Positions 14,958 through 61,100 of a stretch of DNA of 64,000 bases are shown in pieces. Every line of letters starts with the position of its first letter. The first letter of the stretch is position 1. The position numbers were made by a program, and so were the translations under genes. Origin of the DNA: Botryllus schlosseri (Eukaryota); NCBI GenBank assembly GCA_051294905.1, contig CM119372.1, positions 28,522,001-28,586,000 on the forward strand. Direction: 5' to 3'. Under the pieces are notes generated by a model. The model worked only from the letters and a program-made list of their open reading frames with translations. It did not search any database and had not been told where the DNA came from.

Positions 14958-14990
14958 ATTACAAGCACCCTATTGGGAGTTCGCCTATTG

Positions 14991-18859: not shown

Positions 18860-19106
18860 GATCGATGACACTGGCGAAGTGATCTCTTTTCATGATGCAT
18901 GGAAGCCAGTTCGGCCCTCCAAAGATTTTGAAGCTCTGAAAACCTTTTGTGGATGACTGGCAACATTCTTTCCTTCAATGGCTACTGTTGAAGCCGATAT
19001 TTCCAAGATTCGCTGGGCGAGAAATGAATTTAGGAGAAACCTAGCTAACCTGAGTTTGGAAGCACTGTTACAGTGCTAACGATTTAAGTCTATTCAACAC
19101 CTGTAA
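18860..19106 (+). pseudogene. Decayed hAT-like transposase C-terminal region
   Basis: Translation IDDTGEVISFHDAWKPVRPSKDFEALKTFCG*LATFFPSMATVEADISKIRWARNEFRRNLANLSLEALLQC* resembles the hAT C-terminal dimerisation region (P-x-x-A-x-V-E-x-x-[FI]-S...R-x-x-L) and has in-frame stops. A TIR-like end TGCCAAAAATAACACGGCCTGCC follows at ~19460, with a palindromic copy at ~18098-18215. Confidence 0.6.
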
Positions 19107-32311: not shown

Positions 32312-32767
32312 CAGGGGCGGGCAACTTCTACGGTCGGCGGGCCTGATTGGGGAAAATGAAGTACTTGGCGAGCCAGAATACAAAATCGATACAATAATCG
32401 CGTAATTATCCACCTATACCAGGGGCGGGCAACTTCTCCAGTCGGCGGGCCGGATATAGGAAAATTGAGTACTTGGCGGGCCGGATCGCTGAATCGATAC
32501 ATTATTCGCCCATTTATCCAAATATACAAGGAATAAATCGTATATAATGAATGTATTTTAACGACAGCCATGTAACTTCAAAGCGATTTCTCGCCAATAA
32601 TGACGAAGACAATGTGGATTTGAGAACAGCATTGTCATACAGGCACCACCATGTCTGCTTATCTCTGACCAATCAACACACGGTGCAATCCTTAATTAAG
32701 ATTTCAAGGCGTTCGATAAGCCCAGTACCCCAAATTTACCGAGACATCAATTCATTAGGGTTTAGTA

Positions 32768-33631
32768 CAGTGGTTCTCAACCTTTTTGTCTTTGCGGACT
32801 CCTTTTGGACCGCCACGGACCCCCGCAAGTTTTCGTTCAAAATTAGATCAATTATCGCGCAACCGTTATCTGTCTCCTGTCTTGTGTCTAGTGATAAACA
32901 TCCACACAATGACTTTTCTTGAAAATAACGTCATACTATATGTAGAAATTGGGTAGACTTTTATTTTCAGCTGTATTTATTGTCTTGAAAATCCGCGTTT
33001 TCGATTAAATATGAGCAAGCGCCGAAAATCCATTTTCGCAAATATATATTGGTGGCGAATATAATAATAACGCGTAACGCTTCCGACGACAGCTTTTGGT
33101 GTGAGTTTTTGCTGTACATATCACGTCCAGTCTGGTAATTTCTATCTTGCATCTCATATTGAAGTTATTTAGTGGTTATATCTCAGGACACAATGGATTT
33201 CGTGATGAGGTTCCAATTCCTTCATTGGGACAGATTGGGAAAAAATTTCAGGAGTTTCTATTTCAAACGACTGTTTACTAATATGCTGAGACTGGCAACT
33301 CCACTAATTTGCTGAGACTGATAACTCCAAATCCAAAATGCCATCTCCAACATTTCATTTTTCCACAAACCCCACCAAAACATCTCTAAACAGCAATATG
33401 TTTGCGTCGGCAGGCTATTGGTAATTTGACAATAAAATGAGTAATCACTGCCGGATATTTGATCTCGGACGAACATTTTAATGATGTGGGTCCTAAAGTT
33501 TGAGCAATTTTGAAACTAAACTGTCTCATGCTTTTCCTATTTAAAAATAAGAATCAGGTTTGCAATCACTTTACAAATTTAGAGGTTTCGCGGACCCCGG
33601 AGGTCCGCGAACCCCCGGTTGAGAACCACTG
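32768..33631. mobile_element. hAT-like MITE, same family as 30888-31905 in opposite orientation
   Basis: TIRs CAGTGGTTCTCAACC / GGTTGAGAACCACTG; TSD GTTTAGTA / GTCTAGTA (7/8). Confidence 0.8.
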
Positions 33632-33787
33632 GTCTAGTATGTGACGAGATAGCGTGGTTGTTCAACTGTGTGGCCTATTTTATCCCGCCCACGGCCTTTA
33701 CGGAATTTGACAGTGGCCCGCGACCCGTTTTGAGTTGGCAACCCCTGGTATAAGCGGTGTGTTACAAAAGCCAGGAAGTGTTCCATG

Positions 33788-36700
33788 AGTAGTTAGAGAA
33801 ATGTGCGGAAGGTGCCCATTCGCGATTTATAAAGAACAAACAAACATTATCAAGATAATAAACAGTGTAAGAATTAGCTCATTCTCAGTTTTGCAGCAAT
33901 ACTCGAGGGGAATTCCCTTCTGACTGTGCGGCAATAGGGGGGACTGAGAGAAAACGAACAAAGAATCTGGATTGACCTTTGTACTGGAGTCATTCTACTT
34001 GTACTTTTCCACTCCTTACCTCGCTTGATCTCTGGACACGAGACTTGTGTATTGAGTATTTATTATATTTTCCCTCGAATAACAATGGATCGGCTTTTAA
34101 TTTCAATGGTATGCACGCCGACGATACGCTCGGCTGGGCAAAGCGACGTCCACAGCCTGTGTCATACTGGACTCGTAACAACCTCGCTCGACCTCTGGTC
34201 AAGGACATGAAATTACAGCTGACTCCGGTCATACGCGACGGGGCTTGGTAATAGTTGCCTGACGACATATCGTCCTGACCTATCGTTTTGTGGTCCAATT
34301 TCGTGACGTGTCTTGGGAATAATTCCCCGTCAAACCCCCTGGCTGACTTGTCGTCCCGTGGTTGACTCGATTTCATGTACGGTGGGGCATGGGAATAATT
34401 GCCGGTGCTGACTTCGGTCGTGTACGACGGGGCTTGACCATAGTTGCCGGCCCTGACCTGTCATTCCGTGGTCCAATTTCGTGGCTCGGGAACAATAGAG
34501 CGTCAAGCTGGTTGACTTGTCGTTCCGCGATTGATTCAATTTCGTGTACGGTGGGTCATAATTACCGGTCGTGACGTCAGTATAGTTTCTTCTGATCCAT
34601 GAGATCCTGGTGCGTGTTTTAGGTGTCCATACGTTCGGCTATGTAAAGTGACGCTTGTGGTCTGTGTCTTGTGTACTGTTGTACTTGAACCCTTTTTTAC
34701 TTTGTTATCGACCCAGACAGTAACGAGAAACGATCTGTTACGATTATAAATATGTATACCATTTCGAGTCATATCGAGAATGAGAATGAATGTCGTAGTA
34801 GAAATGTGTATTAGGCGACCCGACATAGATTAACTTAAATAAATTAGCATTATAAATACAATAAGTAATTGAGCAAATAGCTGATTCTCAATTTTGCTCG
34901 CATCAACATGTTAACCCCTGGTATTACGTACCTAGTAATCGGCGCAAGCAACAAATGTGGCTGTTCCATACCTATACCTCGTTCTAGCGTATTCATAAGG
35001 ACAGACAGTCCCGAGTAAAACAATGTATTTATGATGGGTTCTTTTTACTCCTTCACGGTTGGTCAAGCGTAATCATCCCGGTGTCTGCAAATGATATTCA
35101 ATTTACCACGGGATATTAATTTTGTATGCTGTACATGATATACAACTTGAATCGAACTGTTGGCGAACTAATGCTTTGCCCGTCTGTAACATACACATAT
35201 CGATCACGAGCTCACCACGCACTTGCAGTTCGAGGGCGACTCATTTCGCTGCAGACAATCAGTTGTGTTCGCGTGTATCGTAACATATCCTCAACACTTG
35301 TTATGGCAACACCTCCACGCATATTTACAATATCATACTAAGGAACTATTGCTTCGGCAGCCACGCCCTATCGCTCGAAGTCGACAAATTTCGCTACAGA
35401 CAGTCAGTTGTGTTCACGTATGTGTCGTAAATATATCCTCAACACATGCTATGCCAATACCTCCAAGCATATTTGCATCATACTTAGGGTTCTGGTTTAA
35501 ATCAGGCTGATTTAAATCATCACGTGTCGACAATCGATCGAAGCCCGTCAACTGGTATTTTGAAAGCTCCCGGTATGGTGTATTATTGTGTATGGATTGT
35601 TGCGGTATTAGAATTGTGGTTACGGCTCGTTGGCGGTGCGAGGATCAGGTTTATAGTATACTATAACTACTTAGCTCGGATATTATACGACGCGCTGCTA
35701 TCGGTGCTTTGTCCAAGACCTAATTCACGATAATCAATCTCGCTGTCGAAAATGACATGCGGCCGCGTAGACTGCATAGCGCCATTTTGTTTTGTGATCC
35801 ATCCTGCTGTGCCGAGGATCGAAACATATCCTCAACACATGTTATGCCAACACCTCCAAGCATATTTGCAGCATCATACTACGGATATATTGACTCGGCA
35901 GAGTGTTACCGTCAGAGAATTGCTGTGTCACGCCTTCGGGCCTTGTATTTTCCGCTCGGTAACTGCGAGTACGATGTTATTTCAATTGTCCGCGAAACGA
36001 ATCGGGGTAGCTCGCTTCATCGGGGTGGACTGACCTTATTTGGCTGAAACGCGCTCGGTGGTGCAATAATGGGAATGAATTGTGACAGATCATACCTGAT
36101 ACGATCTATAGCCTGAGGTGAGGTGTAAAGTAGAGGGGGAGATTTCGAAATCGGAATCCACTGCGACTATAGGGTTGCTAAATCAAAGTCCAAAAAATCC
36201 GGCTGGCTCGTAAAGTCCTGTTATTTCCATATGTTGTGAGGGTAAAATATAGCATAAATCCGACTCTCAGGGCCATTTGGCCGCATCCAGACTGGCTTCG
36301 CTGAAAACTGATGAAATCTGCCCCGGGTCCGGAGATGTTTCGTGACCTCCTCCGTCCAGACAAGATTGTTCTGCTGTAATATAGGTGTCGTTGTATAATA
36401 ATTTACGTACAAGGAGACTTGGTATCGACCCTTTGGCGGAATTCTGTTTGGTTCGTCTGTACAGGTGTTATTAGTGCGACCAGATTTGGCACCTCGAGAA
36501 GGATATTGGTAAAAACCGTATCACACAACGAGGACAATAACTTTACCGGTCAACAATGTACGTAAATCAGCTGTGTTCAATCGAGCGTGACACAATCGAT
36601 GTCAGCCATCAATCTGCGGCTTGATAAAACCCGCGTTTTCGGGTTGACAGCAACACAATGCGATCCATTCGATATCACTATCGACCCTCCTATTTTAATA

Positions 36701-39700
36701 TAGGGTTACCATGAGGCCTCCTTTAGGGGAGCATATGTCCTCCATTTCCCAGATATGTCACCCAATTCACCCAAATGTACTCTCTTTCTGTCAGTTTGTC
36801 CTCCTTGTTAGCTCAACATCTCCAAAAAAGCACCACGAGTAACGCAAAATGTGGGCCTAGATTACAAAAGTCGGGTACGTGGCCAAATCGGAAAAATGAC
36901 GCTATGATGGTATTGTGCAGGCTATTACGTGGATACGGGGGCCTGTGTAAACATGTGAATAGTAAAAGCGCTCCAAACTACCGTGAAAAAAGATCGAGCG
37001 CATTAGACCATGTCGGGGCCACCTTAGTACAGTCAAATGATCCCATGTCGTATCGAGAATAGCCGGGGCGGTGGTGGTACATCATTCTCACAAGATGTAC
37101 TTTGGAATGCGTGTGAAATCGTCTTCGTCCGCTACTCGACTAAAGCAGAATATAGCTTTGAAGTACTCAAGTAGCTTTAAAAGAAATGTCGTGAAATCGC
37201 TTTCTATCCTAATGATAAAGAGTAGGCCCCCCATAAATCTATCGAGCCAAAATGTAGTTTCAAAGCAATCCAGTAATTTGTAAATCTTACGGGTTGAACG
37301 GTGTGTTCATTGACTAGAGAGAAGGAGACACGACGGTGCCTGTATAACAAGGCTGTTCTCAAACCGACATTGTCTTCGTTATTATCGGCGAGATATGGCT
37401 TTGCAGTGACATTGCGGTCGGTAAAATACATTGATTAAATACGATTTATCCCTCGTATATGGGGATCAATGGGCGAATAATGTATCGATTCAGCAATTCG
37501 GCATGCCAAGTACTTAATTTTCTCCGGCCCGCCGACCGAAGGAGTTGCCCGCCCCCCTTGTATAACACATATGTAGATGATACAATAGCGACAGCTAGCG
37601 GTTGTCAATCATCCATAAAAATACTAACCAGTAATACAGCCCTCAAGGAAAACAACAATCCGGGGAGATACGTCAAGTGTATTTCAGATACATCGTCTGT
37701 AGACCTCCAATTGCGGAGAACACTGGAGCAGCTGAAGCACTGTGTTCTGTCTAGGTCACCGAGATAAAGCTTGTTTTGCCAACTCGCCGACCGTCCGTGG
37801 TATGGGATAGCTGGGTCATTTCTCAAAGGTTCAGTACTCTCCGTATTTTGAGGTTATTGCACAATCTATCTCTAATATGCTGTAATATAGACAGGTCCAG
37901 ACTTGTCTATTCACTTCCGTAGACTGACCTTTATAACACATTTTACACAATTAAATACACATGTTCAGTTTATTTGAAGTAATAACGGGCAAGCACATTA
38001 ACTAATCGTCCAGAACAAGGTGTAGAGCTTCTTTCAGATCTTGGCATACTTTCTTGATATCAGAATCTTTTTTTTGATTTGCGATGTAAAAGCAATACCA
38101 GCTTCGCATACATGAGCATATGATTGCGTATAAACCGATATTGAAGTCTTCTGAGAGCATCTTCATTATTCTCCAGTCTACACAATATTATTTTCCTCTT
38201 AGTACGTTATGTCTCTCAATCCAACAGTACAGTTGAATTGCTATTCGAAGGTATCTGATACAGACAACTGTAAACTAATTCTTTAAGTTTGTTCATCGTA
38301 GCGTAACGACCATTTTTACGAATCCATAACTGTATCATTTGATATCGTTGCTCAGTTAAGGTATAGCAATCCATGTATTGGCATTCGGCAATTTCATTGT
38401 CAGATAGCTCAAGTTTTTCACGTGCAAACCTATACCAGTTCATCGGGTCAATCCGATCCATTATGACGTATATATCACTAGCAGTAATCTTGGACATATT
38501 CGATCTATAGTGTACAGCGAATAATCATGTAATAAATATTACACGTTATATATTGCCTTGCACTCGGTTCAACTACAATAACAAATAAGGCGATCAACTT
38601 ACGCAATAATGACGTAATCATATCTCAGCGTTACTGAAACCAAGCAAAGCCGCTCTCGTAATAACTAGAGTAATCAACTATACGCAATCATAATGACGTA
38701 ATCATTACTGCACATGCTTGAACTGCAATACGCAATCATAATGAAGAATATATACGTATATATCAATTTCTGCAACTTTTTAATTTTGCTCGCACTGTAC
38801 ACGATTTCATGTATATAAATGTTTTGATTATTAGGCACCCTTCCTTCACAAAAATACGCATCATTTATGAGAGTAGGGATCTAAGCGTTGGCCATTACCA
38901 CGCCAAGAGGTAAGAAGACATATGAAGTTTGGGCCAACATGGGCCTCATAGAAGAGTGCCAAAAAGATCGTCAGCGAGAAAACATGGGTCGAAAAGGATT
39001 GCCCTTATGTTGACCGTAAACTTCGATATAAATGTATTTGTATGGGTGTCTAAAGTGCTGGCACCGAATAATTATGTCGTGGTAATCTGGACCCCACAGG
39101 GCAACTGACATCCCACCCCGAATTATTATTTAACAGTGAAGAAATACCAATTTTGAATCGTGCGCTTCTTTTAGTTTAGTAGTCTGTGTATAGGCGAGTT
39201 CAATATCTTTTGATTACATACCGCACATGGGAAGTCGGACTGAGAGGATACAAAATTTATAGCAATATACACGCAATTATCAATATTATTGACCTAATCA
39301 ATCATTAATTATACAGTCATTTCACCAGGTCCACGTGGTCGCATCTGAATGGAGACCGGATAGGTCAAAAGTGCTACATTCGGTCAAAGTGGCGAACATA
39401 CCGCCTGGTTATCAAGTGTTTTTATGTATGATCGACCCCCACTGTCTAGCGAGACGAGCAGGATTTTGGTGTCTGATTATTAATGTCGTAAGAGTGTGGT
39501 AAATCCATTTACAAACTACTTTACACATTTCAAAATCCCAACACCCGAAAAGTAAGTAGCTAAAACGGTTGAAGCGGAGGTAGTCTGAAACACAACGACT
39601 CATATAGCACAGATGGACAAATCCTAATCGAGTACATCGGATAGAGTTGCATCCTTGAAATCGTTATTTCCTCAACAAATCGATACAAGAATGGATCTGC

Positions 39701-40087
39701 ATGGGAATAAACATGAATATGTTCTGATGACACTCGTTATGGAAAGCTAAATTCGCCTGCCCCACATCCCCAACAGAACATATTGACAATTAATATCAGC
39801 CATATACTACAGAAATACCCATTTACTCGAATGGTACCATGTCTGAAATACTGTAGTGTAGGCGAATCAGCGTCTACTGATCCTGACAGTCACCGTTTAA
39901 ACAGGTTTTTGCCGGGTCAACTGTGATCGGACACGGTTCATCCGCTACTTGCAGACTTATACGCGCGGGGGGTTGAAAAAAAAAATGGCTCGGATGCTAT
40001 GTCAGCTCAGGGCGACAATTCGAAGTTTTAAACGATACGGTTGGTACGTAAAGCCTCGTTATTCCCGCGTATTGTGAGGGTAAAACC
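33788..40087 (+). repeat. Element 1 left arm (6300 bp)
   Basis: Reverse complement of 42213-48512. Mirrored coordinates sum to 82300/82301, and mirrored ORFs differ at only a few residues. Confidence 0.97.
38216..38497 (-). CDS. Intronless death-domain-only protein (93 aa), left-arm copy
   Basis: Death-domain pattern: I..RI...W..FAR.KL.LSD.EI.......LTEQ.YQMIQLW..KNG..AT...L.E. Protein identical to the copy at 43804-44085. Confidence 0.8.
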   Translation of the reverse strand: MSKITASDIYVIMDRIDPMNWYRFAREKLELSDNEIAECQYMDCYTLTEQRYQMIQLWIRKNGRYATMNKLKELVYSCLYQIPSNSNSTVLLD

Positions 40088-40729
40088 GATGCTAAAATAA
40101 GTCGTTGGAAGGGTATACCGAAAGCCTCTTTGCACTGCGGGTGAACTTATCGCATAGCATTTCACAGCTCTGCGGCGTAATTTAACTGTCTAGCGCTGTG
40201 GACGGTCCATTTTGTCTGCTAATTGGGGGCCATAAACGACCGAGTGAAACAAATAGTTTGGGGTATATGCGGATATGATTAGGAAACAACACGCTGAATG
40301 ACTTGGGAATCTCAACTCGACAAAGGATCGTCGCGACGGGGGACCTGCAAAAACGTCCCAGACACCCTGAATCCCGCTAATGTAGGCGCTGACAGAGCAT
40401 AATTTTCCCTGCTACGGGTGTAATCTAGATAAAGCATGATTTTTTCCTATATGTCTGTAATCTATATAAAGCATAGTGCTCCCTAGATACCAGGCGTGGG
40501 GGATCACGAATCACCAAGTGTTTTTATACATTGAGAAATGATCGAGCTATTTTTATACCCGAGGTAGTCATTCAGAGACATGCAGGCTTATTCGTATAGA
40601 CTCTCTATAGTGTAGCATCTATCTGATTCGGGGATAAGTAAATGCTTTGTCCACGCTCAAACTGAGGATGCTTTGAATTTGTATCTTACTCATGTTATTA
40701 TTCACCCTCCAGGAAATATTTATAGTACG

Positions 40730-41236
40730 ATGGAGTCTAATAAATGCCGTATTTGTGCGCGGGAATTCACAAGAAAATGCAACCTCAAAAGTCATTTACT
40801 ATGGCACACTGGTGTTAAAGAACATGAATGCTTGATATGCGGACGATGGTTTCTTGCCAAACAGAACCTACATGCCCATTTGGCTGTACACTCGGGGGTG
40901 AAACCGTACGATTGTGAAGTATGTGGTCGTTTTTTTGCCCGAAAATACACCATGGAAGTCCATTTGGCCACACATACTGGCGTAGAAAGATTCGAGTGTG
41001 GGGTGTGTGGTAAGCTTCTGTCGGGGAAGAATGGGCTGAAAAAACACCTAGAAACACACTTTGGAATTGGAAAATACTCGTGTCAGGTGTGTGGGAGACT
41101 GTTTCCTCACCAATGCGGGTTAGAAACTCACCTCCAGGCTCCCGTGGGACTGAGAAAATATCCATGCGGTGTTTGCGGTAAAGCTTTTGGTTCGCAAGCA
41201 AATCTTCACAGACACGAGACTACTCCCTTTGTGTGA
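40730..41236 (+). CDS. Tandem C2H2 zinc-finger protein (168 aa from ATG 40730); four canonical fingers plus two lacking the last His
   Basis: Repeats of CxxCx3Fx5Lx2Hx3H with TGVKEHE / SGVKPYD / TGVERFE linkers. AATAAA at ~41265. Possible acceptor CCCTCCAG just upstream. Confidence 0.9.
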   Translation: MESNKCRICAREFTRKCNLKSHLLWHTGVKEHECLICGRWFLAKQNLHAHLAVHSGVKPYDCEVCGRFFARKYTMEVHLATHTGVERFECGVCGKLLSGKNGLKKHLETHFGIGKYSCQVCGRLFPHQCGLETHLQAPVGLRKYPCGVCGKAFGSQANLHRHETTPFV

Positions 41237-43559
41237 GCCGATCGTATTTCAATATGAGTGTACCAATAAATATTTTTTTCGCGTCTGTATAATTCTGTGT
41301 TGTTTGTCCGAGGCTTCTATGTTGGTGTTTTAATCATTTAGTGGGGGCAGAGATAAAAGAGTCGATATTACAATAGACACGACTCGTCCTAGTCGAGTAT
41401 TAGAAACCACCATGAAAGCAGGTCAACTTTATGTGACAGTTTTGATAACACCAATACTACAAAATACCATTTATCGTCTGACGGTGAAAGATGGGGATTT
41501 GCGAATAGGGGCTGGTTGCAATACCACACGAGTAAATACACAGAGAGAGTCTTTATTTTAAACAAACCAAAATACGTAACAAACGGCAGTGATGGTGGTA
41601 CAGAAAATATACTTTGCACAGTATTCGGTACTAGATGGGAATGATCGACAAGACCGTGAAGGTCATCTAGTCTGATCACACAGTGTAAAGAGGCTTTCGG
41701 TATACCCTTCCGAAACGTATAGTTACGGGGCATGGACGGGCGCCCGGGAGACATACCTTATTAGTAATTTTACCGTACGACTTATTTTAGCATCGGGTGA
41801 TTTTAATACCCTTTCGAAGATGTCGTGTTTTATTTGACGAAGTCAGAGGTTTGTTTCACACGGTGTGATTACGAGTGATAAATTGTAAACATAATAGCAC
41901 ACAGCAGCTGACGGGTCGCGGTGCGGGACAATAAAGACGGTTACCGTGCGAGACGTACAAGCCACCATAACTACACAGAGGTCGTCAGCAATGCCGCTAC
42001 TTTTTTCCGGGTACTCGATTCTGTCTACTCGCACTGCACCAAGTTATCAATGTGGCTAGCCTTCTTTAGGAAGCCACTTACTTTTACTAGTTTATAAAAG
42101 TTTAGCGACCCCCTCCGTATCATGCGACGATAGCTGGAGCTGTTAGGCTTGACTAGAGTTGACCACGATTCGGGCACGCATTTTCATCGGCTCGATGTGG
42201 AACTGTCTTAAAGGTTTTACCCTCACAATACGCGGGAATAACGAGGCTTTACGTACCAACCGTATCGTTTAAAACTTCGAATTGTCGCCCTGAGCTGACA
42301 TAGCATCCGAGCCATTTTTTTTTTCAACCCCCCGCGCGTATAAGTCTGCAAGTAGCGGATGAACCGTGTCCGATCACAGTTGACCCGGCAAAAACCTGTT
42401 TAAACGGTGACTGTCAGGATCAGTAGACGCTGATTCGCCTACACTACAGTATTTCAGACATGGTACCATTCGAGTAAATGGGTATTTCTGTAGTATATGG
42501 CTGATATTAATTGTCAATATGTTCTGTTGGGGATGTGGGGCAGGCGAATTTAGCTTTCCATAACGAGTGTCATCAGAACATATTCATGTTTATTCCCATG
42601 CAGATCCATTCTTGTATCGATTTGTTGAGGAAATAACGATTTCAAGGATGCAACTCTATCCGATGTACTCGATTAGGATTTGTCCATCTGTGCTATATGA
42701 GTCGTTGTGTTTCTGACTACCTCCGCTTCAACCGTTTTAGCTACTTACTTTTCGGGTGTTGGGATTTTGAAATGTGTAAAGTAGTTTGTAAATGGATTTA
42801 CCACACTCTTACGACATTATTAATCAGACACCAAAATCCTGCTCGTCTCGCTAGACAGTGGGGGTCGATCATACATAAAAACACTTGATAACCAGGCGGT
42901 ATGTTCGCCACTTTGACCGAATGTAGCACTTTTGACCTATCCGGTCTCCATTCAGATGCGACCACGTGGACCTGGTGAAATGACTGTATAATTAATGATT
43001 GATTAGGTCAATAATATTGATAATTGCGTGTATATTGCTATAAATTTTGTATCCTTTCAGTCCGACTTCCCATGTGCGGTATGTAATCAAAAGATATTGA
43101 ACTCGCCTATACACAGACTACTAAACTAAAAGAAGCGCACGATTCAAAATTGGTATTTCTTCACTGTTAAATAATAATTCGGGGTGGGATGTCAGTTGCC
43201 CTGTGGGGTCCAGATTACCACGACATAATTATTCGGTGCCAGCACTTTAGACACCCATACAAATACATTTATATCGAAGTTTACGGTCAACATAAGGGCA
43301 ATCCTTTTCGACCCATGTTTTCTCGCTGACGATCTTTTTGGCACTCTTCTATGAGGCCCATGTTGGCCCAAACTTCATATGTCTTCTTACCTCTTGGCGT
43401 GGTAATGGCCAACGCTTAGATTCCTACTCTCATAAATGATGCGTATTTTTTGTGAAGGAAGGGTGCCTAATAATCAAAACATTTATCTACATGAAATCGT
43501 GTACAGTGCGAGCAAAATTAAAAAGTTGCAGAAATTGATATATACGTATATATTCTTCA

Positions 43560-43755
43560 TTATGATTGCGTATTGCAGTTCAAGCATGTGCAGTAATGAT
43601 TACGTCATTATGATTGCGTATAGTTGATTACTCTAGTTATTACGAGAGCGGCTTTGCTTGGTTTCAGTAACGCTGAGATATGATTACGTCATTATTGCGT
43701 AAGTTGATCGCCTTATTTGTTATTGTAGTTGAACCGAGTGCAAGGCAATATATAA
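43560..43755 (+). promoter_or_regulatory. Putative promoter of the death-domain gene: clustered bZIP-type sites plus TATA (mirrored at ~38546-38741)
   Basis: GATTACGTCAT x2 (43598, 43682), ATTGCGTA x3 (43565, 43613, 43694) and TATATAA at 43749-43755, ~50 bp before ATG 43804. Confidence 0.55.
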
Positions 43756-43803
43756 CGTGTAATATTTATTACATGATTATTCGCTGTACACTATAGATCG
43801 AAT

Positions 43804-44085
43804 ATGTCCAAGATTACTGCTAGTGATATATACGTCATAATGGATCGGATTGACCCGATGAACTGGTATAGGTTTGCACGTGAAAAACTTGAGCTATCTG
43901 ACAATGAAATTGCCGAATGCCAATACATGGATTGCTATACCTTAACTGAGCAACGATATCAAATGATACAGTTATGGATTCGTAAAAATGGTCGTTACGC
44001 TACGATGAACAAACTTAAAGAATTAGTTTACAGTTGTCTGTATCAGATACCTTCGAATAGCAATTCAACTGTTCTGTTGGATTGA
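43804..44085 (+). CDS. Intronless death-domain-only protein (93 aa), right-arm copy
   Basis: Death-domain pattern as in the left copy; upstream TATA; downstream AATAAA at 44327-44332. Confidence 0.8.
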   Translation: MSKITASDIYVIMDRIDPMNWYRFAREKLELSDNEIAECQYMDCYTLTEQRYQMIQLWIRKNGRYATMNKLKELVYSCLYQIPSNSNSTVLLD

Positions 44086-47000
44086 GAGACATAACGTACT
44101 AAGAGGAAAATAATATTGTGTAGACTGGAGAATAATGAAGATGCTCTCAGAAGACTTCAATATCGGTTTATACGCAATCATATGCTCATGTATGCGAAGC
44201 TGGTATTGCTTTTACTTCGCAAATCAAAAAAAAGATTCTGATATCAAGAAAGTATGCCAAGATCTGAAAGAAGCTCTACACCTTGTTCTGGACGATTAGT
44301 TAATGTGCTTGCCCGTTATTACTTCAAATAAACTGAACATGTGTATTTAATTGTGTAAAATGTGTTATAAAGGTCAGTCTACGGAAGTGAATAGACAAGT
44401 CTGGACCTGTCTATATTACAGCATATTAGAGATAGATTGTGCAATAACCTCAAAATACGGAGAGTACTGAACCTTTGAGAAATGACCCAGCTATCCCATA
44501 CCACGGACCGTCGGCGAGTTGGCAAAACAAGCTTTATCTCGGTGACCTAGACAGAACACAGTGCTTCAGCTGCTCCAGTGTTCTCCGCAATTGGAGGTCT
44601 ACAGACGATGTATCTGAAATACACTTGACGTATCTCCCCGGATTGTTGTTTTCCTTGAGGGCTGTATTACTGGTTAGTATTTTTATGGATGATTGACAAC
44701 CGCTAGCTGTCGCTATTGTATCATCTACATATGTGTTATACAAGGGGGGCGGGCAACTCCTTCGGTCGGCGGGCCGGAGAAAATTAAGTACTTGGCATGC
44801 CGAATTGCTGAATCGATACATTATTCGCCCATTGATCCCCATATACGAGGGATAAATCGTATTTAATCAATGTATTTTACCGACCGCAATGTCACTGCAA
44901 AGCCATATCTCGCCGATAATAACGAAGACAATGTCGGTTTGAGAACAGCCTTGTTATACAGGCACCGTCGTGTCTCCTTCTCTCTAGTCAATGAACACAC
45001 CGTTCAACCCGTAAGATTTACAAATTACTGGATTGCTTTGAAACTACATTTTGGCTCGATAGATTTATGGGGGGCCTACTCTTTATCATTAGGATAGAAA
45101 GCGATTTCACGACATTTCTTTTAAAGCTACTTGAGTACTTCAAAGCTATATTCTGCTTTAGTCGAGTAGCGGACGAAGACGATTTCACACGCATTCCAAA
45201 GTACATCTTGTGAGAATGATGTACCACCACCGCCCCGGCTATTCTCGATACGACATGGGATCATTTGACTGTACTAAGGTGGCCCCGACATGGTCTAATG
45301 CGCTCGATCTTTTTTCACGGTAGTTTGGAGCGCTTTTACTATTCACATGTTTACACAGGCCCCGTATCCACGTAATAGCCTGCACAATACCATCATAGCG
45401 TCATTTTTCCGATTTGGCCACGTACCCGACTTTTGTAATCTAGGCCCACATTTTGCGTTACTCGTGGTGCTTTTTTGGAGATGTTGAGCTAACGAGGAGG
45501 ACAAACTGACAGAAAGAGAGTACATTTGGGTGAATTGGGTGACATATCTGGGAAATGGAGGACATATGCTCCCCTAAAGGAGGCCTCATGGAAACCCTAT
45601 ATTAAAATAGGAGGGTCGATAGTGATATCGAATGGATCGCATTGTGTTGCTGTCAACCCGAAAACGCGGGTTTTATCAAGCCGCAGATTGATGGCTGACA
45701 TCGATTGTGTCACGCTCGATTGAACACAGCTGATTTACGTACATTGTTGACCGGTAAAGTTATTGTCCTCGTTGTGTGATACGGTTTTTACCAATATCCT
45801 CCTCGAGGTGCCAAATCTGGTCGCACTAATAACACCTGTACAGACGAACCAAACAGAATTCCGCCAAAGGGTCGATACCAAGTCTCCTTGTACGTAAATT
45901 ATTATACAACGACACCTATATTACAGCAGAACAATCTTGTCTGGACGGAGGAGGTCACGAAACATCTCCGGACCCGGGGCAGATTTCATCAGTTTTCAGC
46001 GAAGCCAGTCTGGATGCGGCCAAATGGCCCTGAGAGTCGGATTTATGCTATATTTTACCCTCACAACATATGGAAATAACAGGACTTTACGAGCCAGCCG
46101 GATTTTTTGGACTTTGATTTAGCAACCCTATAGTCGCAGTGGATTCCGATTTCGAAATCTCCCCCTCTACTTTACACCTCACCTCAGGCTATAGATCGTA
46201 TCAGGTATGATCTGTCACAATTCATTCCCATTATTGCACCACCGAGCGCGTTTCAGCCAAATAAGGTCAGTCCACCCCGATGAAGCGAGCTACCCCGATT
46301 CGTTTCGCGGACAATTGAAATAACATCGTACTCGCAGTTACCGAGCGGAAAATACAAGGCCCGAAGGCGTGACACAGCAATTCTCTGACGGTAACACTCT
46401 GCCGAGTCAATATATCCGTAGTATGATGCTGCAAATATGCTTGGAGGTGTTGGCATAACATGTGTTGAGGATATGTTTCGATCCTCGGCACAGCAGGATG
46501 GATCACAAAACAAAATGGCGCTATGCAGTCTACGCGGCCGCATGTCATTTTCGACAGCGAGATTGATTATCGTGAATTAGGTCTTGGACAAAGCACCGAT
46601 AGCAGCGCGTCGTATAATATCCGAGCTAAGTAGTTATAGTATACTATAAACCTGATCCTCGCACCGCCAACGAGCCGTAACCACAATTCTAATACCGCAA
46701 CAATCCATACACAATAATACACCATACCGGGAGCTTTCAAAATACCAGTTGACGGGCTTCGATCGATTGTCGACACGTGATGATTTAAATCAGCCTGATT
46801 TAAACCAGAACCCTAAGTATGATGCAAATATGCTTGGAGGTATTGGCATAGCATGTGTTGAGGATATATTTACGACACATACGTGAACACAACTGACTGT
46901 CTGTAGCGAAATTTGTCGACTTCGAGCGATAGGGCGTGGCTGCCGAAGCAATAGTTCCTTAGTATGATATTGTAAATATGCGTGGAGGTGTTGCCATAAC

Positions 47001-48883
47001 AAGTGTTGAGGATATGTTACGATACACGCGAACACAACTGATTGTCTGCAGCGAAATGAGTCGCCCTCGAACGGCAAGTGCGTGGTGAGCTCGTGATCGA
47101 TATGTGTATGTTACAGACGGGCAAAGCATTAGTTCGCCAACAGTTCGATTCAAGTTGTATATCATGTACAGCATACAAAATTAATATCCCGTGGTAAATT
47201 GAATATCATTTGCAGACACCGGGATGATTACGCTTGACCAACCGTGAAGCAGTAAAAAGAACCCATCATAAATACATTGTTTTACTCGGGACTGTCTGTC
47301 CTTATGAATACGCTAGAACGAGGTATAGGTATGGAACAGCCACATTTGTTGCTTGCACCGATTACTAGGTACGTAATACCAGGGGTTAACATGTTGATGC
47401 GAGCAAAATTGAGAATCAGCTATTTGCTCAATTACTTATTGTATTTATAATGCTAATTTATTTAAGTTAATCTATGTCGGGTCGCCTAATACACATTTCT
47501 ACTACGACATTCATTCTCATTCTCGATATGACTCGAAATGGTATACATATTTATAATCGTAACAGATCGTTTCTCGTTACTGTCTGGGTCGATAACAAAG
47601 TAAAAAAGGGTTCAAGTACAACAGTACACAAGACACAGACCACAAGCGTCACTTTACATAGCCGAACGTATGGACACCTAAAACACGCACCAGGATCTCA
47701 TGGATCAGAAGAAACTATACTGACGTCACGACCGGTAATTATGACCCACCGTACACGAAATTGAATCAACCGCGGAACGACAAGTCAACCAGCTTGACGC
47801 TCTATTGTTCCCGAGCCACGAAATTGGACCACGGAATGACAGGTCAGGGCAGGCAACTATGGTCAAGCCCCGTCGTACACGACCGAAGTCAGCACCGGCA
47901 ATTATTCCCATGCCCCACCGTACATGAAATCGAGTCAACCACGGGACGACAAGTCAGCCAGGGGGTTTGACGGGGAATTATTCCCAAGACACGTCACGAA
48001 ATTGGACCACAAAACGATAGGTCAGGACGATATGTCGTCAGGCAACTATTACCAAGCCCCGTCGCGTATGACCGGAGTCAGCTGTAATTTCATGTCCTTG
48101 GCCAGAGGTCGAGCGAGGTTGTTACGAGTCCAGTATGACACAGGCTGTGGACGTCGCTTTGCCCAGCCGAGCGTATCGTCGGCGTGCATACCATTGAAAT
48201 TAAAAGCCGATCCATTGTTATTCGAGGGAAAATATAATAAATACTCAATACACAAGTCTCGTGTCCAGAGATCAAGCGAGGTAAGGAGTGGAAAAGTACA
48301 AGTAGAATGACTCCAGTACAAAGGTCAATCCAGATTCTTTGTTCGTTTTCTCTCAGTCCCCCCTATTGCCGCACAGTCAGAAGGGAATTCCCCTCGAGTA
48401 TTGCTGCAAAACTGAGAATGAGCTAATTCTTACACTGTTTATTATCTTGATAATGTTTGTTTGTTCTTTATAAATCGCGAATGGGCACCTTCCGCACATT
48501 TCTCTAACTACTTCCATGCTACAAGTCGACGTTACGGAATCCAAAATAAGAAATATCGGCCTGGTGTAAATGACCATTATAGTTGACAAACACCATGATT
48601 ACCACAAATGTCATTAGTGTTGAGTACATCGTAAATGCCGATAATGCAAGTCTTCACGCTTCGACGAACTGACGCGTAAGCTCCACCTTCGCTCGCCGCG
48701 CATACATGTGCATAGTAACACACATGCAGTCACTAAAATTTGACGTAGTAAGCAAGTAGTGGGGAATCTCAGAAGACTGGGGCCGCGGGCCATTATCATG
48801 TAAGACGGAAAACTGTCCGCGGGCCGGACAAAATCCCTTCGCGGGCCGGATCCGGCCCGCGGGCCGTATGTTGCCCGCCCCTG

Positions 48884-54300: not shown

Positions 54301-57198
54301 CGAAACCAGTGTCCAATATCAATACAAGATATTTTCGTCACACAAAAATAATCAACTTCACTCGACATTCCCGTACTACGAAACTGTACAAAGGTTACAT
54401 GCTTTTGTATGACATGGAATCAATAGCGATCGAAGTAACCGTATTGGAGATAACTTTTAAACAAACACACTCTACGTGGTTAACATTCTCGTCGATTCTA
54501 TTGTGATTAATGTATACTTCATGTGATCTGGATTCATTTCGATATGGCTAAACATTCAACCTCGACGGATACGAATTGTCACACACTCAAGTAATATCAT
54601 ACCAAATAGTTATTTACAAGACACAGAAATTTGTTTTGGTCGTTTCGACTTTATTACTGGAGATACTCATCACTTCGCTTAATACAATCTAGATTTAAAC
54701 TCCATCGAACCTTTGGTGTCTATCGTTTTGCTGGATACGAATTATGTTAGTCTAAGAGTACACAATTTTCACTATCTTGGGTTATGAACTCAGTGTGTTA
54801 GCGATCATTCAATATTTTGTGGTATCAACTAGCTACTTCGTAGGATACGAATGATCATCCTCACAACTCTTACAAAAGTACGAAGGATATTTACATCACA
54901 CAAAGTAATCGACTTTACTCGATATCCTCACACTACGAAACTGAATGGTTATGGTTTGACTCTACAAACTGTTCTGATGTCACAAGAACTTTTTCATACG
55001 AATGGTTACGTATCTAAATATTCAAATAATCCAACACACGACTATAGCACTTACTGAAATATCATAGTTCTTGTAACAAGTTGTATAAGTATAATGTTTA
55101 TCGTAAGTCCTACATAGCCATGATATCCGTCCGAGTTTGACTTTTAGAAACCATTATACCGACATCGCGACATCTTTCAAAATTAAAACCACGGTGACTG
55201 CTTCAGAGACCTACCAATGAAATTGCAGTATTACAGTTACTTCCACAAAAGAGTATGTATTCGACTTACTTACCACAAATCTAACGCACAAAACAATTTA
55301 CTTTACTAACGAGAAGCACCGAGCCTCACATCAAAACAACTAGAAAGTGGAACTATATTAAAAAACGTCGCTAACCTTTGTGCACCAGCTGTAAATCACA
55401 CAAGCAACATGTTTCAAGATTCTGGTTATTGAAAAACGTTAAAGTGTTTCTCCTGCACCAAGTCGTTATGTTGACGAAAGTGTATATTGTAATACCATGA
55501 TCGATTTGCATTCGTTGGTCACAAACTGTCACTACTCCAAAAAATTATTTTTCACTCAAACACAAAAGCATACTTGTCGCCAATCGTTTTCATCAAGCAC
55601 GAGTTCAAGAAACCTGCTACGACATGAATTGTTATTTTGATGTTGTGTAAATAGGTAATAATTTATTTTAGTAACACTACATCAACATCATCGAGTTGTG
55701 CGAATAGATTTACATGTGGTTTTAATCGAAGTACACAGCACGGTCTAATGTAGATTCATCTCTATTGTACAGCAACTCGGTAATCGAAATGCATTAACAT
55801 TTAAACAACGATCTTGGTTCGTCACGCGAAAAATATCTTTACTGTCGCAACACTCTGATACTCTGCACAAGATGTGTAAATCCTTTTCACACTCATAATA
55901 ATACACTAACGGGATACCGATGTCAAGCAACAACGTTTAACAACATCACTGACACTGAACATACGATACCTACCCAAGTAAAAATATCATTTTCACCAGG
56001 AGGTCAGTCGTTACTTGTGTACAATTAACATTTTCCCTTGGGAGTTTAGCGTTACCCGAGTAACAAACCCATTTTCACTTGGAAATATATGTTTTCCCTC
56101 AACAACAAACGTTTTTCACTTGGAAATATATTTTTTCCCTGGGTAACAAACCCCTTTTCACTTGGAAATATATTTTTGCCCTGGATAACAAACCTTTTTC
56201 ACTTGGAAATATATTTTTTCTCTTGGTAACAAACCTTTTTCACTTGGAAATATATTTTTTCTCTGGGTAACAAACCTTTTTCACTTGGGAATATATTTTT
56301 TCCCCGATCAACAAACCTTTTTCACTTGGAAATATATTTTTTCCCCGAGCAACAAACCATTTTCACTGAGCAACAAACCCTTTTCTCCCCAGGCAACAAA
56401 CCCTTTTCGTTTGGAAAACTATCATTTACCTGAGTACCAATACCATTTTCGTTTTGAAAACTGACAACTACACCGGTCAATTTGATATTTTTTGTATATT
56501 GTTACAGCAGATAGTGACAAAATATACACCAACAACGACTCCGATACATTTGTGTAATCAAATATTCACTTGCTCTGATGCATCCCATCAAAATCATTGG
56601 TTACTCACATACAATAACAATGAGCTGTTGTACACCGAAATGCACGCTTTGGAAAATTGGACAATAGGCTGCGATAGTTCTGCGATGTCCGGGTTCGTGC
56701 TTTGGATTTTCCAGAGTCAAAATGTCTGAATAAAACACCTCCTCGACGATGGTTGGTATGTGGATAACGGTGTTCGGAAAACGGTTGGATTTATGTCACC
56801 CATCGCGATAACAATTCCTGGTCGAGTTTTCCTCCGGCATGTTTACTATATTGTGTCTTTATTGGTCAATGTATGTCTCGACATTCAGTTTGAAATCGGA
56901 AATGATAAAGTACGTAACCGGATCCGGATATCAACTCTGAATCGATAAACCAATGAACAATATTCAAAGTAAACATGTTACACCTGTGTTTCCACGAAAA
57001 AATACCATCCAGACATACGTCGCGCTTGTTTGCCCACACCAGTATACGCGCAAATGGAGGTGTGTGACATTGCATGCAATGTGTTGGTATACAAACATCG
57101 ATCCACAGACATTATCATAGCCGGTAATTTTGATGTAGATCGAATGTCACCCGATAACAATGTCATACCAATAAGCCACATTGCAATGACTCTGAGTC
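51334..57198 (+). repeat. Element 2 left arm (portion whose mirror is visible)
   Basis: Reverse complement of 58135-64000. Confidence 0.97.
56062..56460 (+). repeat. 41-bp minisatellite, ~8 copies plus degenerate tail
   Basis: Unit AACAAACCTTTTTCACTTGGAAATATATTTTTTCCCTGGGT; CACTTGG recurs at 56076, 56117, 56159, 56200, 56241, 56282, 56323. Confidence 0.95.
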
Positions 57199-58134
57199 CG
57201 CGCTATTACATCGATATTTCGACACCGTTCACTGATTTACTCGATGGTGTTATCGTGTTGCAACATTACAAGATAGTCATGACCCTATCTCCGGACAGAC
57301 GTCCCAGATCAATTGGATACATAGGTCAATATCCATCGTGTTGTCGAGACCGAAGTTTTCCGCTGAGACTGCAGCGTTTCACCAATGTGAACTATCGAAG
57401 TACGGTGCTCGAAATGATTGTGATCAGTCTTTCAGTCACGATGCAAGGATGTCGCTACTCCAGCATAACGACTCCAGATAAATATCGTGAACAGTGATTC
57501 TGAAAATCTCGGACTGATACTGTGATCCAATAAGGTATGTTTCTGTGGAATGAAGACTGCAATCGTACACCACAATAGAACACTACCTCGCGATTTCACA
57601 CACAATCATAAAACACATCATCGTAAGGGTCCAGTTCGTCCGGTAACATTTCGAAACGGTCATCGCCACAAGAGATCGGGTTGGTCTCGTCGTATCGGTA
57701 GCATTTTGACACTGCCATCACCACAAGGCTATTGACGTCGTTTCGGTTGGTCATGTCAATCCGTTTTACAATTTACCGTTTTTCAACTCCCCGCACCATA
57801 CTGTTACGACACAGACAAGAAGCATCGGTGGAAATAATAAAACACGGAAGGCACACTTTGGTGGTATTTGACATGGATTTTACACCAGACGAACCTCACA
57901 TTCGAGCGATGTATTGGAATGACGCCTGTATTATCGATGTCGAAGGAACAGAAATGTATCGATTTATTGGTTTCGTACATATCCAACAAAAACCAGGGTA
58001 TATGATTGTGCATGGTTCGCATATTCGAATGTGAACGCCCAATTGGTATATGTTGTATAGTTCACTTTCACCATCGTGCGAATAACCCATGTTACGGGTC
58101 CATGTTTGTGTGTCTGTATGTCATGCTTCAGATT

Positions 58135-61100
58135 GACTCAGAGTCATTGCAATGTGGCTTATTGGTATGACATTGTTATCGGGTGACATTCGATCTACAT
58201 CAAAATTACCGGCTATGATAATGTCTGTGGATCGATGTTTGTATACCAACACATTGCACGCAATGTCACACACCTCCATTTGCGCGTATACTGGTGTGGG
58301 CAAACAAGCGCGACGTATGTCTGGATGGTATTTTTTCGTGGAAACACAGGTGTAACATGTTTACTTTGAATATTGTTCATTGGTTTATCGATTCAGAGTT
58401 GATATCCGGATCCGGTTACGTACTTTATCATTTCCGATTTCAAACTGAATGTCGAGACATACATTGACCAATAAAGACACAATATAGTAAACATGCCGGA
58501 GGAAAACTCGACCAGGAATTGTTATCGCGATGGGTGACATAAATCCAACCGTTTTCCGAACACCGTTATCCACATACCAACCATCGTCGAGGAGGTGTTT
58601 TATTCAGACATTTTGACTCTGGAAAATCCAAAGCACGAACCCGGACATCGCAGAACTATCGCAGCCTATTGTCCAATTTTCCAAAGCGTGCATTTCGGTG
58701 TACAACAGCTCATTGTTATTGTATGTGAGTAACCAATGATTTTGATGGGATGCATCAGAGCAAGTGAATATTTGATTACACAAATGTATCGGAGTCGTTG
58801 TTGGTGTATATTTTGTCACTATCTGCTGTAACAATATACAAAAAATATCAAATTGACCGGTGTAGTTGTCAGTTTTCAAAACGAAAATGGTATTGGTACT
58901 CAGGTAAATGATAGTTTTCCAAACGAAAAGGGTTTGTTGCCTGGGGAGAAAAGGGTTTGTTGCTCAGTGAAAATGGTTTGTTGCTCGGGGAAAAAATATA
59001 TTTCCAAGTGAAAAAGGTTTGTTGATCGGGGAAAAAAATATATTCCCAAGTGAAAAAGGTTTGTTACCCAGAGAAAAAATATATTTCCAAGTGAAAAAGG
59101 TTTGTTACCAAGAGAAAAAATATATTTCCAAGTGAAAAAGGTTTGTTATCCAGGGCAAAAATATATTTCCAAGTGAAAAGGGGTTTGTTACCCAGGGAAA
59201 AAATATATTTCCAAGTGAAAAACGTTTGTTGTTGAGGGAAAACATATATTTCCAAGTGAAAATGGGTTTGTTACTCGGGTAACGCTAAACTCCCAAGGGA
59301 AAATGTTAATTGTACACAAGTAACGACTGACCTCCTGGTGAAAATGATATTTTTACTTGGGTAGGTATCGTATGTTCAGTGTCAGTGATGTTGTTAAACG
59401 TTGTTGCTTGACATCGGTATCCCGTTAGTGTATTATTATGAGTGTGAAAAGGATTTACACATCTTGTGCAGAGTATCAGAGTGTTGCGACAGTAAAGATA
59501 TTTTTCGCGTGACGAACCAAGATCGTTGTTTAAATGTTAATGCATTTCGATTACCGAGTTGCTGTACAATAGAGATGAATCTACATTAGACCGTGCTGTG
59601 TACTTCGATTAAAACCACATGTAAATCTATTCGCACAACTCGTTGATGTTGATGTAGTGTTACTAAAATAAATTATTACCTATTTACACAACATCAAAAT
59701 AACAATTCATGTCGTAGCAGGTTTCTTGAACTCGTGCTTGATGAAAACGATTGGCGACAAGTATGCTTTTGTGTTTGAGTGAAAAATAATTTTTTGGAGT
59801 AGTGACAGTTTGTGACCAACGAATGCAAATCGATCATGGTATTACAATATACACTTTCGTCAACATAACGACTTGGTGCAGGAGAAACACTTTAACGTTT
59901 TTCAATAACCAGAATCTTGAAACATGTTGCTTGTGTGATTTACAGCTGGTGCACAAAGGTTAGCGACGTTTTTTAATATAGTTCCACTTTCTAGTTGTTT
60001 TGATGTGAGGCTCGGTGCTTCTCGTTAGTAAAGTAAATTGTTTTGTGCGTTAGATTTGTGGTAAGTAAGTCGAATACATACTCTTTTGTGGAAGTAACTG
60101 TAATACTGCAATTTCATTGGTAGGTCTCTGAAGCAGTCACCGTGGTTTTAATTTTGAAAGATGTCGCGATGTCGGTATAATGGTTTCTAAAAGTCAAACT
60201 CGGACGGATATCATGGCTATGTAGGACTTACGATAAACATTATACTTATACAACTTGTTACAAGAACTATGATATTTCAGTAAGTGCTATAGTCGTGTGT
60301 TGGATTATTTGAATATTTAGATACGTAACCATTCGTATGAAAAAGTTCTTGTGACATCAGAACAGTTTGTAGAGTCAAACCATAACCATTCAGTTTCGTA
60401 GTGTGAGGATATCGAGTAAAGTCGATTACTTTGTGTGATGTAAATATCCTTCGTACTTTTGTAAGAGTTGTGAGGATGATCATTCGTATCCTACGAAGTA
60501 GCTAGTTGATACCACAAAATATTGAATGATCGCTAACACACTGAGTTCATAACCCAAGATAGTGAAAATTGTGTACTCTTAGACTAACATAATTCGTATC
60601 CAGCAAAACGATAGACACCAAAGGTTCGATGGAGTTTAAATCTAGATTGTATCAAGCGAAGTGATGAGTATCTCCAGTAATAAAGTCGAAACGACCAAAA
60701 CAAATTTCTGTGTCTTGTAAATAACTATTTGGTATGATATTACTTGAGTGTGTGACAATTCGTATCCGTCGAGGTTGAATGTTTAGCCATATCGAAATGA
60801 ATCCAGATCACATGAAGTATACATTAATCACAATAGAATCGACGAGAATGTTAACCACGTAGAGTGTGTTTGTTTAAAAGTTATCTCCAATACGGTTACT
60901 TCGATCGCTATTGATTCCATGTCATACAAAAGCATGTAACCTTTGTACAGTTTCGTAGTACGGGAATGTCGAGTGAAGTTGATTATTTTTGTGTGACGAA
61001 AATATCTTGTATTGATATTGGACACTGGTTTCGTTACCCAAGTGAGTGAAAATTGTTCTTGGCTGGACAGATATGATTAGTATTTAGAAAAAACGACTCA

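Follow-up and report, generated by a model that had tools for sequence, protein, structure and literature searches.

How does an animal chromosome come to carry a 14.7-kb sequence that is, over most of its length, its own reverse complement, and that is bounded like a mobile element? The question is raised by a stretch of the Botryllus schlosseri genome, C2:28522001-28586000 (64,000 nucleotides, 'the window' in what follows), in which positions 33788..48512 form the palindrome, here called the window element. The answer favored here is that this is very probably a non-autonomous palindromic derivative of an abundant Polinton/Maverick family, and that its symmetry arose by a snap-back/inverted-dimer mechanism, to which, taken by itself, we give even odds. 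Identity and mechanism together make the best explanation overall, with a probability of roughly 0.8. The locus is not alone: it is one of dozens of helper-dependent palindromic copies in the genome.

Both junctions of the element were read. On the left the flank runs ...gttCCATG and the element then begins AGTAGTTAGAG...; on the right it closes with ...CTCTAACTACT, and the flank resumes as TCCATGcta.... The ends are AGTAGT and ACTACT, and a 6-bp direct repeat, TCCATG, adjoins both exactly; termini, target-site duplication (TSD) and coordinates are just what the initial annotation of this DNA had given. Between the ends, a repeat search finds an inverted repeat in three abutting blocks (33788-36940 with 45360-48512, 36938-38854 with 43447-45363, and 38850-40087 with 42213-43450). 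Self-BLAST puts the identity of the arms at 99.698 % across 6301 columns, and a four-way alignment counts 19 differences between them, two of which are 1-bp indels. The 6300-bp near-identical arms and the 2125-bp spacer that had been reported are there, the arms being not fully identical, and the inverted repeat, put at about 85 %, measures 85.6 % (12600 of 14725 bp). Base composition is unremarkable. The features are these (C15 is an autonomous copy, described below):

33782..33787, no strand: left copy of the TSD, TCCATG, repeated at 48513-48518
33788..40087, plus strand: left arm, 6300 bp, beginning AGTAGTTAGAG; 99.70 % complementary to 42213-48512, with 19 differences
33788..34123, plus strand: terminus shared with the autonomous Polintons, where replication is presumed to start and the integrase to act; 94 % identity to the left end of C15 over the first 198 bp, 88 % to either end of C15 over 33787-34123
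35521..35730, plus strand: remnant of the autonomous element's small terminal open reading frame (ORF), 70 amino acids (aa), 87 % (tblastn, query aa 68-137)
37287..37522, no strand: high-copy small repeat nested in the left arm and mirrored in the right arm (repeat search, pair 84 %; depth spike in bin 37213-37513)
37608..37853, minus strand: BIR gene fragment (inhibitor-of-apoptosis, IAP), 82-aa frame, BIR profile positions 30-63 of 70, E 8.8e-7
38219..38497, minus strand: death-domain-only ORF, 93 aa from the first ATG, stop at 38216-38218 (Death, E 7.5e-11)
40088..42212, no strand: spacer (loop), single-copy, 2125 bp (repeat search, self-BLAST)
40730..41233, plus strand: C2H2 zinc-finger ORF, 168 aa from the first ATG, inside the 206-aa frame 40616-41233 (zf-H2C2_2, E 9e-24)
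41666..41907, no strand: 242-bp stretch skipped by contigs of three other runs (joint 41665->41908 in X5, X7 and X10)
42213..48512, minus strand: right arm, ending CTCTAACTACT (repeat search, self-BLAST, four-way alignment)
43777..44082, plus strand: second death-domain frame, in the right arm, open, 100 % aa identity (C2:28565777-28566082)
44448..44693, plus strand: second BIR fragment, in the right arm, 99 % (C2:28566448-28566693)
48513..48518, no strand: right copy of the TSD, TCCATG, matching the left

What kind of element has such ends? As described in the portion of PMC10748475 that deals with them, Polintons measure 13-25 kb and have terminal inverted repeats (TIRs) of 100-1500 bp and TSDs of 5-8 bp. 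The window element agrees with autonomous Polintons/Mavericks in its AG...CT ends with reiterated AGT, its 6-bp TSD, its length of 14,725 bp (within 13-25 kb) and the homology of its termini. It differs from them in having no core genes, in being about 86 % inverted repeat, and in its 6.3-kb TIRs, which lie outside the range of 100-1500 bp at about four times the upper bound.

The affiliation of the ends can be read from C15, an element of 16,573 bp with TIRs of 567 bp that are 92.6 % alike; elements of this helper type are 16.4-16.6 kb long. Its polymerase frame, of 1336 aa, finds nothing in sequence searches of Pfam, PHROGs and the PDB (phmmer); 23 of 30 ESM Atlas hits are eukaryotic clusters of PF03175 (DNA_pol_B_2), with a score of 0.97, and the frame contains what we take, reading it by eye, to be the exonuclease and polymerase motifs of protein-primed B-family polymerases (pPolB). 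The integrase, a 365-aa frame, matches rve (PF00665; E 4.1e-8, 33.8 bits against the Pfam cut-off of 32.6). The capsid candidate, 424 aa long and with 6308 relatives in the representative library, is recognized by fold only, PDB sequence searches being blank with the single protein and with a profile. An AlphaFold 2 (AF2) model, built from a 45-row alignment at a mean predicted local distance difference test score (pLDDT) of 92.7, matches double jelly-roll capsid proteins in Foldseek: first the major capsid protein (MCP) of Sputnik (3j26_A; E 1e-15, TM 0.68), then those of SGIV, PBCV-1 and mavirus, with E from 1e-15 to 1e-13 over the four. A 219-aa P-loop frame (NTPase) gives sub-threshold Pfam matches and no useful PDB match, and Pfam recognizes no protease at E up to 10. 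Because it has a pPolB, an rve integrase and a double jelly-roll capsid protein, C15 is a genuine Polinton/Maverick. The initial annotation had envisaged partners with the same ends that encode pPolB, integrase, ATPase, protease or MCP; the polymerase, integrase and MCP are found in C15, the ATPase is represented by a weak P-loop match, and the protease is not recognized. The genome hosts several Polinton families, for its pPolB genes fall into at least three lineages, with 92-100 %, 62-65 % and 38-39 % aa identity to that of C15.

Could the likeness of the ends be deceptive? Animal genomes contain long-armed foldback-like elements, the window element has no polymerase or integrase of its own, and the same window contains a second, unrelated inverted-repeat family; all three would suit a long-TIR foldback transposon of another superfamily, moved by DDE cut-and-paste, with ends that merely resemble those of Polintons. 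We consider this very improbable. Over its first 198 bp the window element matches, at 94 %, one end of C15, a copy with genes for pPolB, integrase and capsid protein; the arms hold remnants of the terminal ORFs of that copy; a chimera unites both kinds of element within one pair of ends and one TSD; and a 6-bp TSD with AG...CT ends fits Polintons as PMC10748475 describes them in that same portion. A Mutator-like or other DDE identity was rejected on the common ends, the chimera and the 6-bp TSD.

The chimera, C5, is 15,579 bp long. Its first 8 kb, through the polymerase, are 95 % identical to the left end of C15; the remaining 7.5 kb are the spacer and one complete arm of a palindrome like that of copy C6, including an open BIR frame of 394 aa. 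Co-replication of helper and palindrome with template switching would be expected to produce such an exchange between one pair of ends, and C5 could illustrate a possible one-armed precursor.

The Drosophila foldback transposons FB and Galileo are DDE cut-and-paste elements with other TSD lengths and, often, tandem-repeat arms. Like the window element they are mostly inverted repeat with little or no coding capacity; the differences are that Tandem Repeats Finder reports no tandem array in the arm and spacer here (0 rows), and that the ends are those of a pPolB/integrase element.

The palindrome belongs to a family. When the 495.5-Mb genome (219 contigs) was searched with the terminal 200 bp of the window element, 40 scored matches were found among 312 candidates; 34 of these form 17 plus/minus pairs, 13.7-31 kb apart, on 13 contigs, and six are single. 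A pPolB match is enclosed by 5 of the 17 pairs. Elements read at sequence level were the window element, C2b (outer and inner), C6, C7, C1, C10, C13, C14, C15 and the C5 chimera, the last two being non-palindromic; C2b outer is the copy in a duplicate of the window locus, and C2b inner is nested within it. All ten elements retrieved have AGTAGT...ACTACT ends. A perfect 6-bp TSD, different in each case, brackets eight of nine independent elements, the ninth matching at five of six positions:

Window element: arms 6.30 kb, 99.70 % alike; TSD TCCATG
C2b inner: arms 6.2 kb, 99.86 %; TSD CTCGAC
C6: arms 4.7 + 1.6 kb, 99.4-99.5 %; TSD CTCGCA/TTCGCA (5 of 6)
C7: arms 4.1 + 3.0 kb, 99.8 %; TSD CCCGGT
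C1: arms 1.4 + 2.9 + 1.9 kb, 99.9 %; TSD TATATA
C13: arms 5.94 kb, 99.93 %; TSD GGCATA
C14: arms 6.24 kb, 99.98 %; TSD AGTGTG
C10: arms about 7.41 kb, 18 mismatched pairs in 14,861 bp; TSD AACGGT
C15 (autonomous): TSD TGTAGT
C5 (chimera, a tenth element): TSD AATGAA

All eight polymerase-free pairs that were sequenced (the window element, C2b, C6, C7, C1, C10, C13 and C14), together with the element nested in C2b, are long palindromes, with arms of 5.9-7.4 kb that are 99.4-99.98 % alike and loops of about 30 bp to 2.1 kb. The C9 pair was left out of both classes; C11a, C11b and C12 are probably of the same palindromic kind, to judge from their inverted pairs of BIR frames. C10 is a nearly perfect palindrome with an origin-bearing end on either side, its mismatches being concentrated in the central loop of about 30 bp. 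Copies free of one-arm insertions measure 13,770, 14,113, 14,130, 14,725, 14,743 and 14,861 bp; C7 (19.4 kb) and C1 (20.8 kb) are lengthened by one-arm insertions, which may post-date integration.

Autonomous copies thus have termini homologous to those of the palindromes, which recur with different TSDs and are devoid of core genes: a tblastn search with 18 C15 frames recovers from them only remnants of two small terminal ORFs, the Pfam frames and tblastn find no pPolB, integrase or capsid gene in the window element, and 27 frames of at least 90 aa from C13, C14 and C10 match no Pfam family. The annotation's view of the window element as a non-autonomous or defective Polinton, with further copies to be found elsewhere, is supported on each of these points. 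It had also known of no described family with this architecture; our literature search found no description either, and the window element itself proves to be one member of a large palindromic family. Its proposals that the element is mobilized in trans and that the cargo modulates the host are kept here as inferences.

One of the copies deserves separate mention. The window locus, from about 24000 to 48995, is duplicated 94,824 bp downstream with its flanks (C2:28640824-28682500), at 99.8-100 % identity; window position 56000 lies outside the duplicated part. Either a segmental duplication or the retention of a haplotype could have produced the duplicate. Its left arm is interrupted by a 16.7-kb insertion (C2b 3056-19726; the target corresponds to window ~36420-36429) that belongs to a different transposon, with a 10-bp direct repeat, GGTATCGACC, and ends AGACATGGGG.../...CCCCATGTCT. 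That insertion harbors in turn another palindromic Polinton derivative, of 14.1 kb, with its own TSD, CTCGAC.

Long palindromes are known to mislead assembly, and one could ascribe the whole structure to a chimeric fold-back read or to a collapsed or duplicated haplotype: the nearby 99.8 % duplicate could be a retained haplotype, and the contigs of about 100-500 bp include no independent read that bridges a junction. Such an artefact is hardly credible when a perfect TSD surrounds the entire structure, when 6 of the 19 arm differences recur identically in the duplicate locus, and when the same architecture is present on at least seven other contigs with different TSDs, loops and one-arm insertions. 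With arms of 6.3 kb and the same architecture at many loci, this is a real class of sequence and not a product of chance. It is just as implausible that one truncated copy inserted into another, head to head, and that the pair has stayed where it formed, an arrangement for which the family member sitting inside the duplicate locus might offer a precedent: a single 6-bp TSD brackets the entire palindrome, there are no termini at the inner ends of the arms, and C7 shares the same centre and has its own TSD, so that the palindrome must have moved as a unit.

What do these elements carry? Between 33788 and 42212 there are 44 stop-to-stop frames of 60 aa or longer, and Pfam recognizes a domain in three of them. 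Two are on the minus strand, a Death domain at 38219-38524 (E 7.5e-11) and part of a BIR domain at 37608-37853 (E 8.8e-7); the plus strand has a C2H2 array at 40616-41233 (E 9e-24). Counting both arms, the cargo of the window element is a BIR fragment in each arm, two death-domain ORFs and a central C2H2 gene. The initial annotation had named the death-domain gene, in two copies, and the C2H2 gene as the only recognizable ones; both are there, and the partial BIR domain had been overlooked. The fragment is 65 % identical to aa 158-211 of a BIR ORF in C6 that is 392 aa long, intronless, and contains three BIR domains (E 2e-44) and, by Pfam, no RING domain. No further BIR exon or upstream half was found among 34 short minus-strand frames in 37000-40100 of the window, which showed no further domain; a complete BIR gene, of one to three domains, is thus lacking in the window element. 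Genome-wide, 150 BIR matches were scored among 472 candidates, mostly open frames of 380-420 aa in inverted pairs, and the ratio of nonsynonymous to synonymous substitution rates (dN/dS) of the BIR ORF between elements is 0.28-0.46, which indicates purifying selection on the three-BIR ORF. Further BIR frames of about 407 aa, 57 % identical to the window fragment, form convergent inverted pairs 1.2-2.7 kb apart at many loci (for example C7:3757186/3758396 and C10:5955124/5957183), and may be another palindromic element family that carries BIR genes.

The death-domain ORF has 146 matches in the genome; 60 of the 87 strongest lie in 30 inverted pairs. The frame has remained open at most of its loci, stops being present, on a reading by eye, in about a dozen of all the matches; one copy in the duplicate locus carries a TAG. 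Seventeen of the inverted pairs read outward and 13 inward, at spacings of 4.9-23 kb; cassette position and orientation therefore vary among sub-families. A search for a longer protein that would place the ORF in a multi-exon gene model scored 0 of 40 candidates. Between the window element and C7 its dN/dS is 0.58. The underlying values (dS 0.21, dN 0.12, 86 % aa identity) stand beside about 96 % nucleotide identity for the surrounding arm; this excess divergence could reflect exchange with another lineage of the ORF, or fast evolution. Over 37815-38416 the depth of raw single-cell RNA reads is 5.7-8.5x, and their orientation is of minus-strand type if the library is of the usual 3' kind. The ORF family is transcribed; since the reads carry variants of other family copies, they speak for the family and are not assignable to the window locus. 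The C2H2 ORF is near full-length at only about seven loci, where it is single and central. The family as a whole carries two cargo genes, one IAP-like, intronless and with three BIR domains, the other encoding a death domain alone; both presumably blunt host cell-death signaling through caspases and death domains.

How, then, is the symmetry made and kept? Copies of the family differ from one another by 3-20 %, and the arms within each copy are at least 99.4 % alike. Two comparisons, one of each kind, bear on when the arms came to match. The window element and C7 are independent insertions with the same centre and their own TSDs; the last ~535 bp of the window spacer (41678-42212) are part of the arms in C7. 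With 711 gap columns set aside, the two show 237 symmetric differences (the arms of each element agree with each other and differ from those of the other element), 28 one-arm differences and no shared arm-specific difference. Between the window locus and its duplicate, two end columns being dropped, 30 sites are variable: 22 are one-arm singletons, six are arm differences identical in both loci, and two are symmetric. Differences between mobile copies are mostly symmetric and those between resident duplicates mostly one-armed, which suggests that symmetry is made or renewed in the mobile phase; the arms would have been about 99.9 % alike at integration and have drifted since. Decay of the arms after integration is demonstrated at this one duplicated locus, possibly a retained haplotype. 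Gene conversion between close inverted repeats is well known, and could uphold symmetry within the chromosome by arm-to-arm transfer unrelated to replication of the element; the two symmetric sites (38937 and 39976), which differ between the duplicated loci in both arms, are what it predicts. Yet the 22 one-arm singletons do not fit it, nor do the six arm differences that persist unchanged in both duplicates, and in C6 the arms have drifted by seven nonsynonymous changes, with one synonymous change, in the BIR gene. Conversion also leaves unexplained how arms and loops can vary while the total stays at 13.8-14.9 kb. We regard it as unlikely, the least so of the alternatives considered.

Renewal in the mobile phase has a precedent among DNA viruses. 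In adenoviral protein-primed replication, as treated in sections of PMC2518115, Ad-dependent replication converts one-ended hairpin monomers to tail-to-tail dimers; these have an advantage in packaging because of their size, and monomers reappear when dimers are resolved at the axis; snap-back defective genomes, in the relevant part of PMC13506859, are highly symmetric palindromes. The mechanism we propose for the palindromic Polintons has the following steps. Having lost polymerase, integrase and capsid genes, the element would depend on autonomous copies to supply replication and integration in trans. A one-ended half genome, consisting of terminus and cargo, would be copied by the protein-primed polymerase, and the strand would snap back during strand displacement; the next round of replication would convert it to a duplex palindrome, an inverted dimer whose two ends would both serve as origins. 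Half and dimer forms would alternate outside the chromosome, by breakage at the axis and re-dimerization, and so renew the symmetry, and the capacity of the capsid would select dimers of about 14-15 kb. Palindromes are in fact of near-constant total length (13.8-14.9 kb), close to the 16.6-kb helper, and size selection probably operates.

The resemblance to adenoviral tail-to-tail dimers and to snap-back genomes of adeno-associated virus (AAV) lies in an origin-bearing end mirrored around a short loop (PMC2518115 and PMC13506859, in the sections that describe such genomes; PMC8235507, in its abstract). The difference is that those defective genomes are products of the laboratory or of a single infection; the Botryllus palindromes, known here from integrated copies alone, are heritable, occupy dozens of loci, have diversified and carry selected genes.

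Several points weigh against this account. The TIRs of C15 are only 92.6 % alike over 567 bp; homogenization of the ends is therefore not a general property of replication in the family. The two symmetric sites in the duplicate locus fit some conversion in place, and the window element and C7 could in principle have become palindromes independently. Mobilization in trans is inferred only from common ends and TSD length, and the helper itself offers a weak P-loop match for its NTPase and no recognized protease. The size argument draws on six uninterrupted copies. The BIR gene is broken in the window element, and the effect of the cargo on host cell death is read only from the domain families to which it belongs. 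No extrachromosomal form, hairpin or dimer was observed in the runs, which consist of short contigs and single-cell RNA reads. Nor does an independent read bridge the junctions of arm and spacer: in runs X5, X7, X10 and X23 the contigs are about 100-500 bp long, depth is summed over all family copies, and no piece spans 33787/33788, 40087/40088 or 42212/42213.

A bolder version of the proposal, which we hold only tentatively, sees the palindromic copies as heritable fossils of snap-back/inverted-dimer genomes of a Polinton virus, that is, as records of extrachromosomal protein-primed cycling and of a capsid filter at about 14-17 kb, left by a satellite lineage that spreads anti-apoptotic genes (death-domain decoys and an IAP with three BIR domains) at two copies per particle. 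Polinton/Maverick replication has so far been a model drawn from gene content, for which this family provides a natural experiment: co-evolution of the arms in the mobile phase, loops of about 30 bp and near-constant length point to protein-primed hairpin replication and capsid size selection. If the bolder version is true, the genome itself would testify that Polintons of animals are copied extrachromosomally, by protein-primed strand displacement, and alternate between half-length hairpins and full-length dimers; the satellite lineage could also explain part of the presence/absence variation of death-domain genes in some marine chordates. BIR and death-domain genes, counted as expanded families of host immunity in many marine invertebrates, can be transposon cargo, and cargo in inverted pairs bears on gene counts and on pangenome studies. 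In lancelet pangenomes, the pertinent passage of PMC12373286 gives the Death domain as the most over-represented among dispensable genes, and no firm association with neighboring mobile elements. Polintons and BIR genes both come up in a paper on a bivalve genome, unlinked in the text available (PMC8905726).

Virus-like mobile elements with cell-death regulators or host-directed cargo have counterparts elsewhere. Baculovirus-type BIR proteins are virus-borne IAPs, and Widen and colleagues reportedly described cargo-carrying Mavericks of nematodes in 2023. The BIR protein described here differs from virus-borne IAPs in having no RING domain by Pfam, and the cargo is borne on helper-dependent palindromes in two inverted copies. 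Teratorn, a piggyBac-herpesvirus fusion with long internal inverted repeats, differs in its transposase, its virus and its size (41-182 kb); its inverted repeats bracket a large unique region, whereas those of the window element form nearly the whole of it. Repbase and the subscription literature may contain non-autonomous Polinton entries, to our knowledge none of this architecture. In the full-text literature (that is, outside Repbase, subscription journals and supplements) no long-TIR or palindromic Polinton derivative was found, and no BIR cargo in Polintons; the text on Polintons, Mavericks and TIRs in the review PMC6431247 has no palindromic derivative. The palindromic helper-dependent architecture is a new structural variant among Polintons.

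Some observations concern the window itself. The 242-bp stretch at 41666-41907 is either an insertion in the window element or a deletion in other copies. Contig depth rises 5- to 100-fold over neighboring bins at 33601-33901, 37213-37513 and 41427-41727 in all three contig runs, and RNA-read depth also spikes at 41427-41727; these bins look like very high-copy short repeats in or beside the element. A relative of the small repeat nested in the arm (37287-37522) is found outside the element at 32460-32695. The second, smaller inverted-repeat element occupies 56000-59334; about 2.1 kb from its part 56000-57200 lies an inverted counterpart, and the plus/minus pair recurs on at least 10 contigs at 92-100 %, as a foldback-like family unrelated to the Polinton ends. 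Finally, 39-50 % of sampled words from the spacer are present in runs X6 (organism B) and X9 (organism C), labelled as other organisms; the sub-family therefore probably has close relatives in more than one species.

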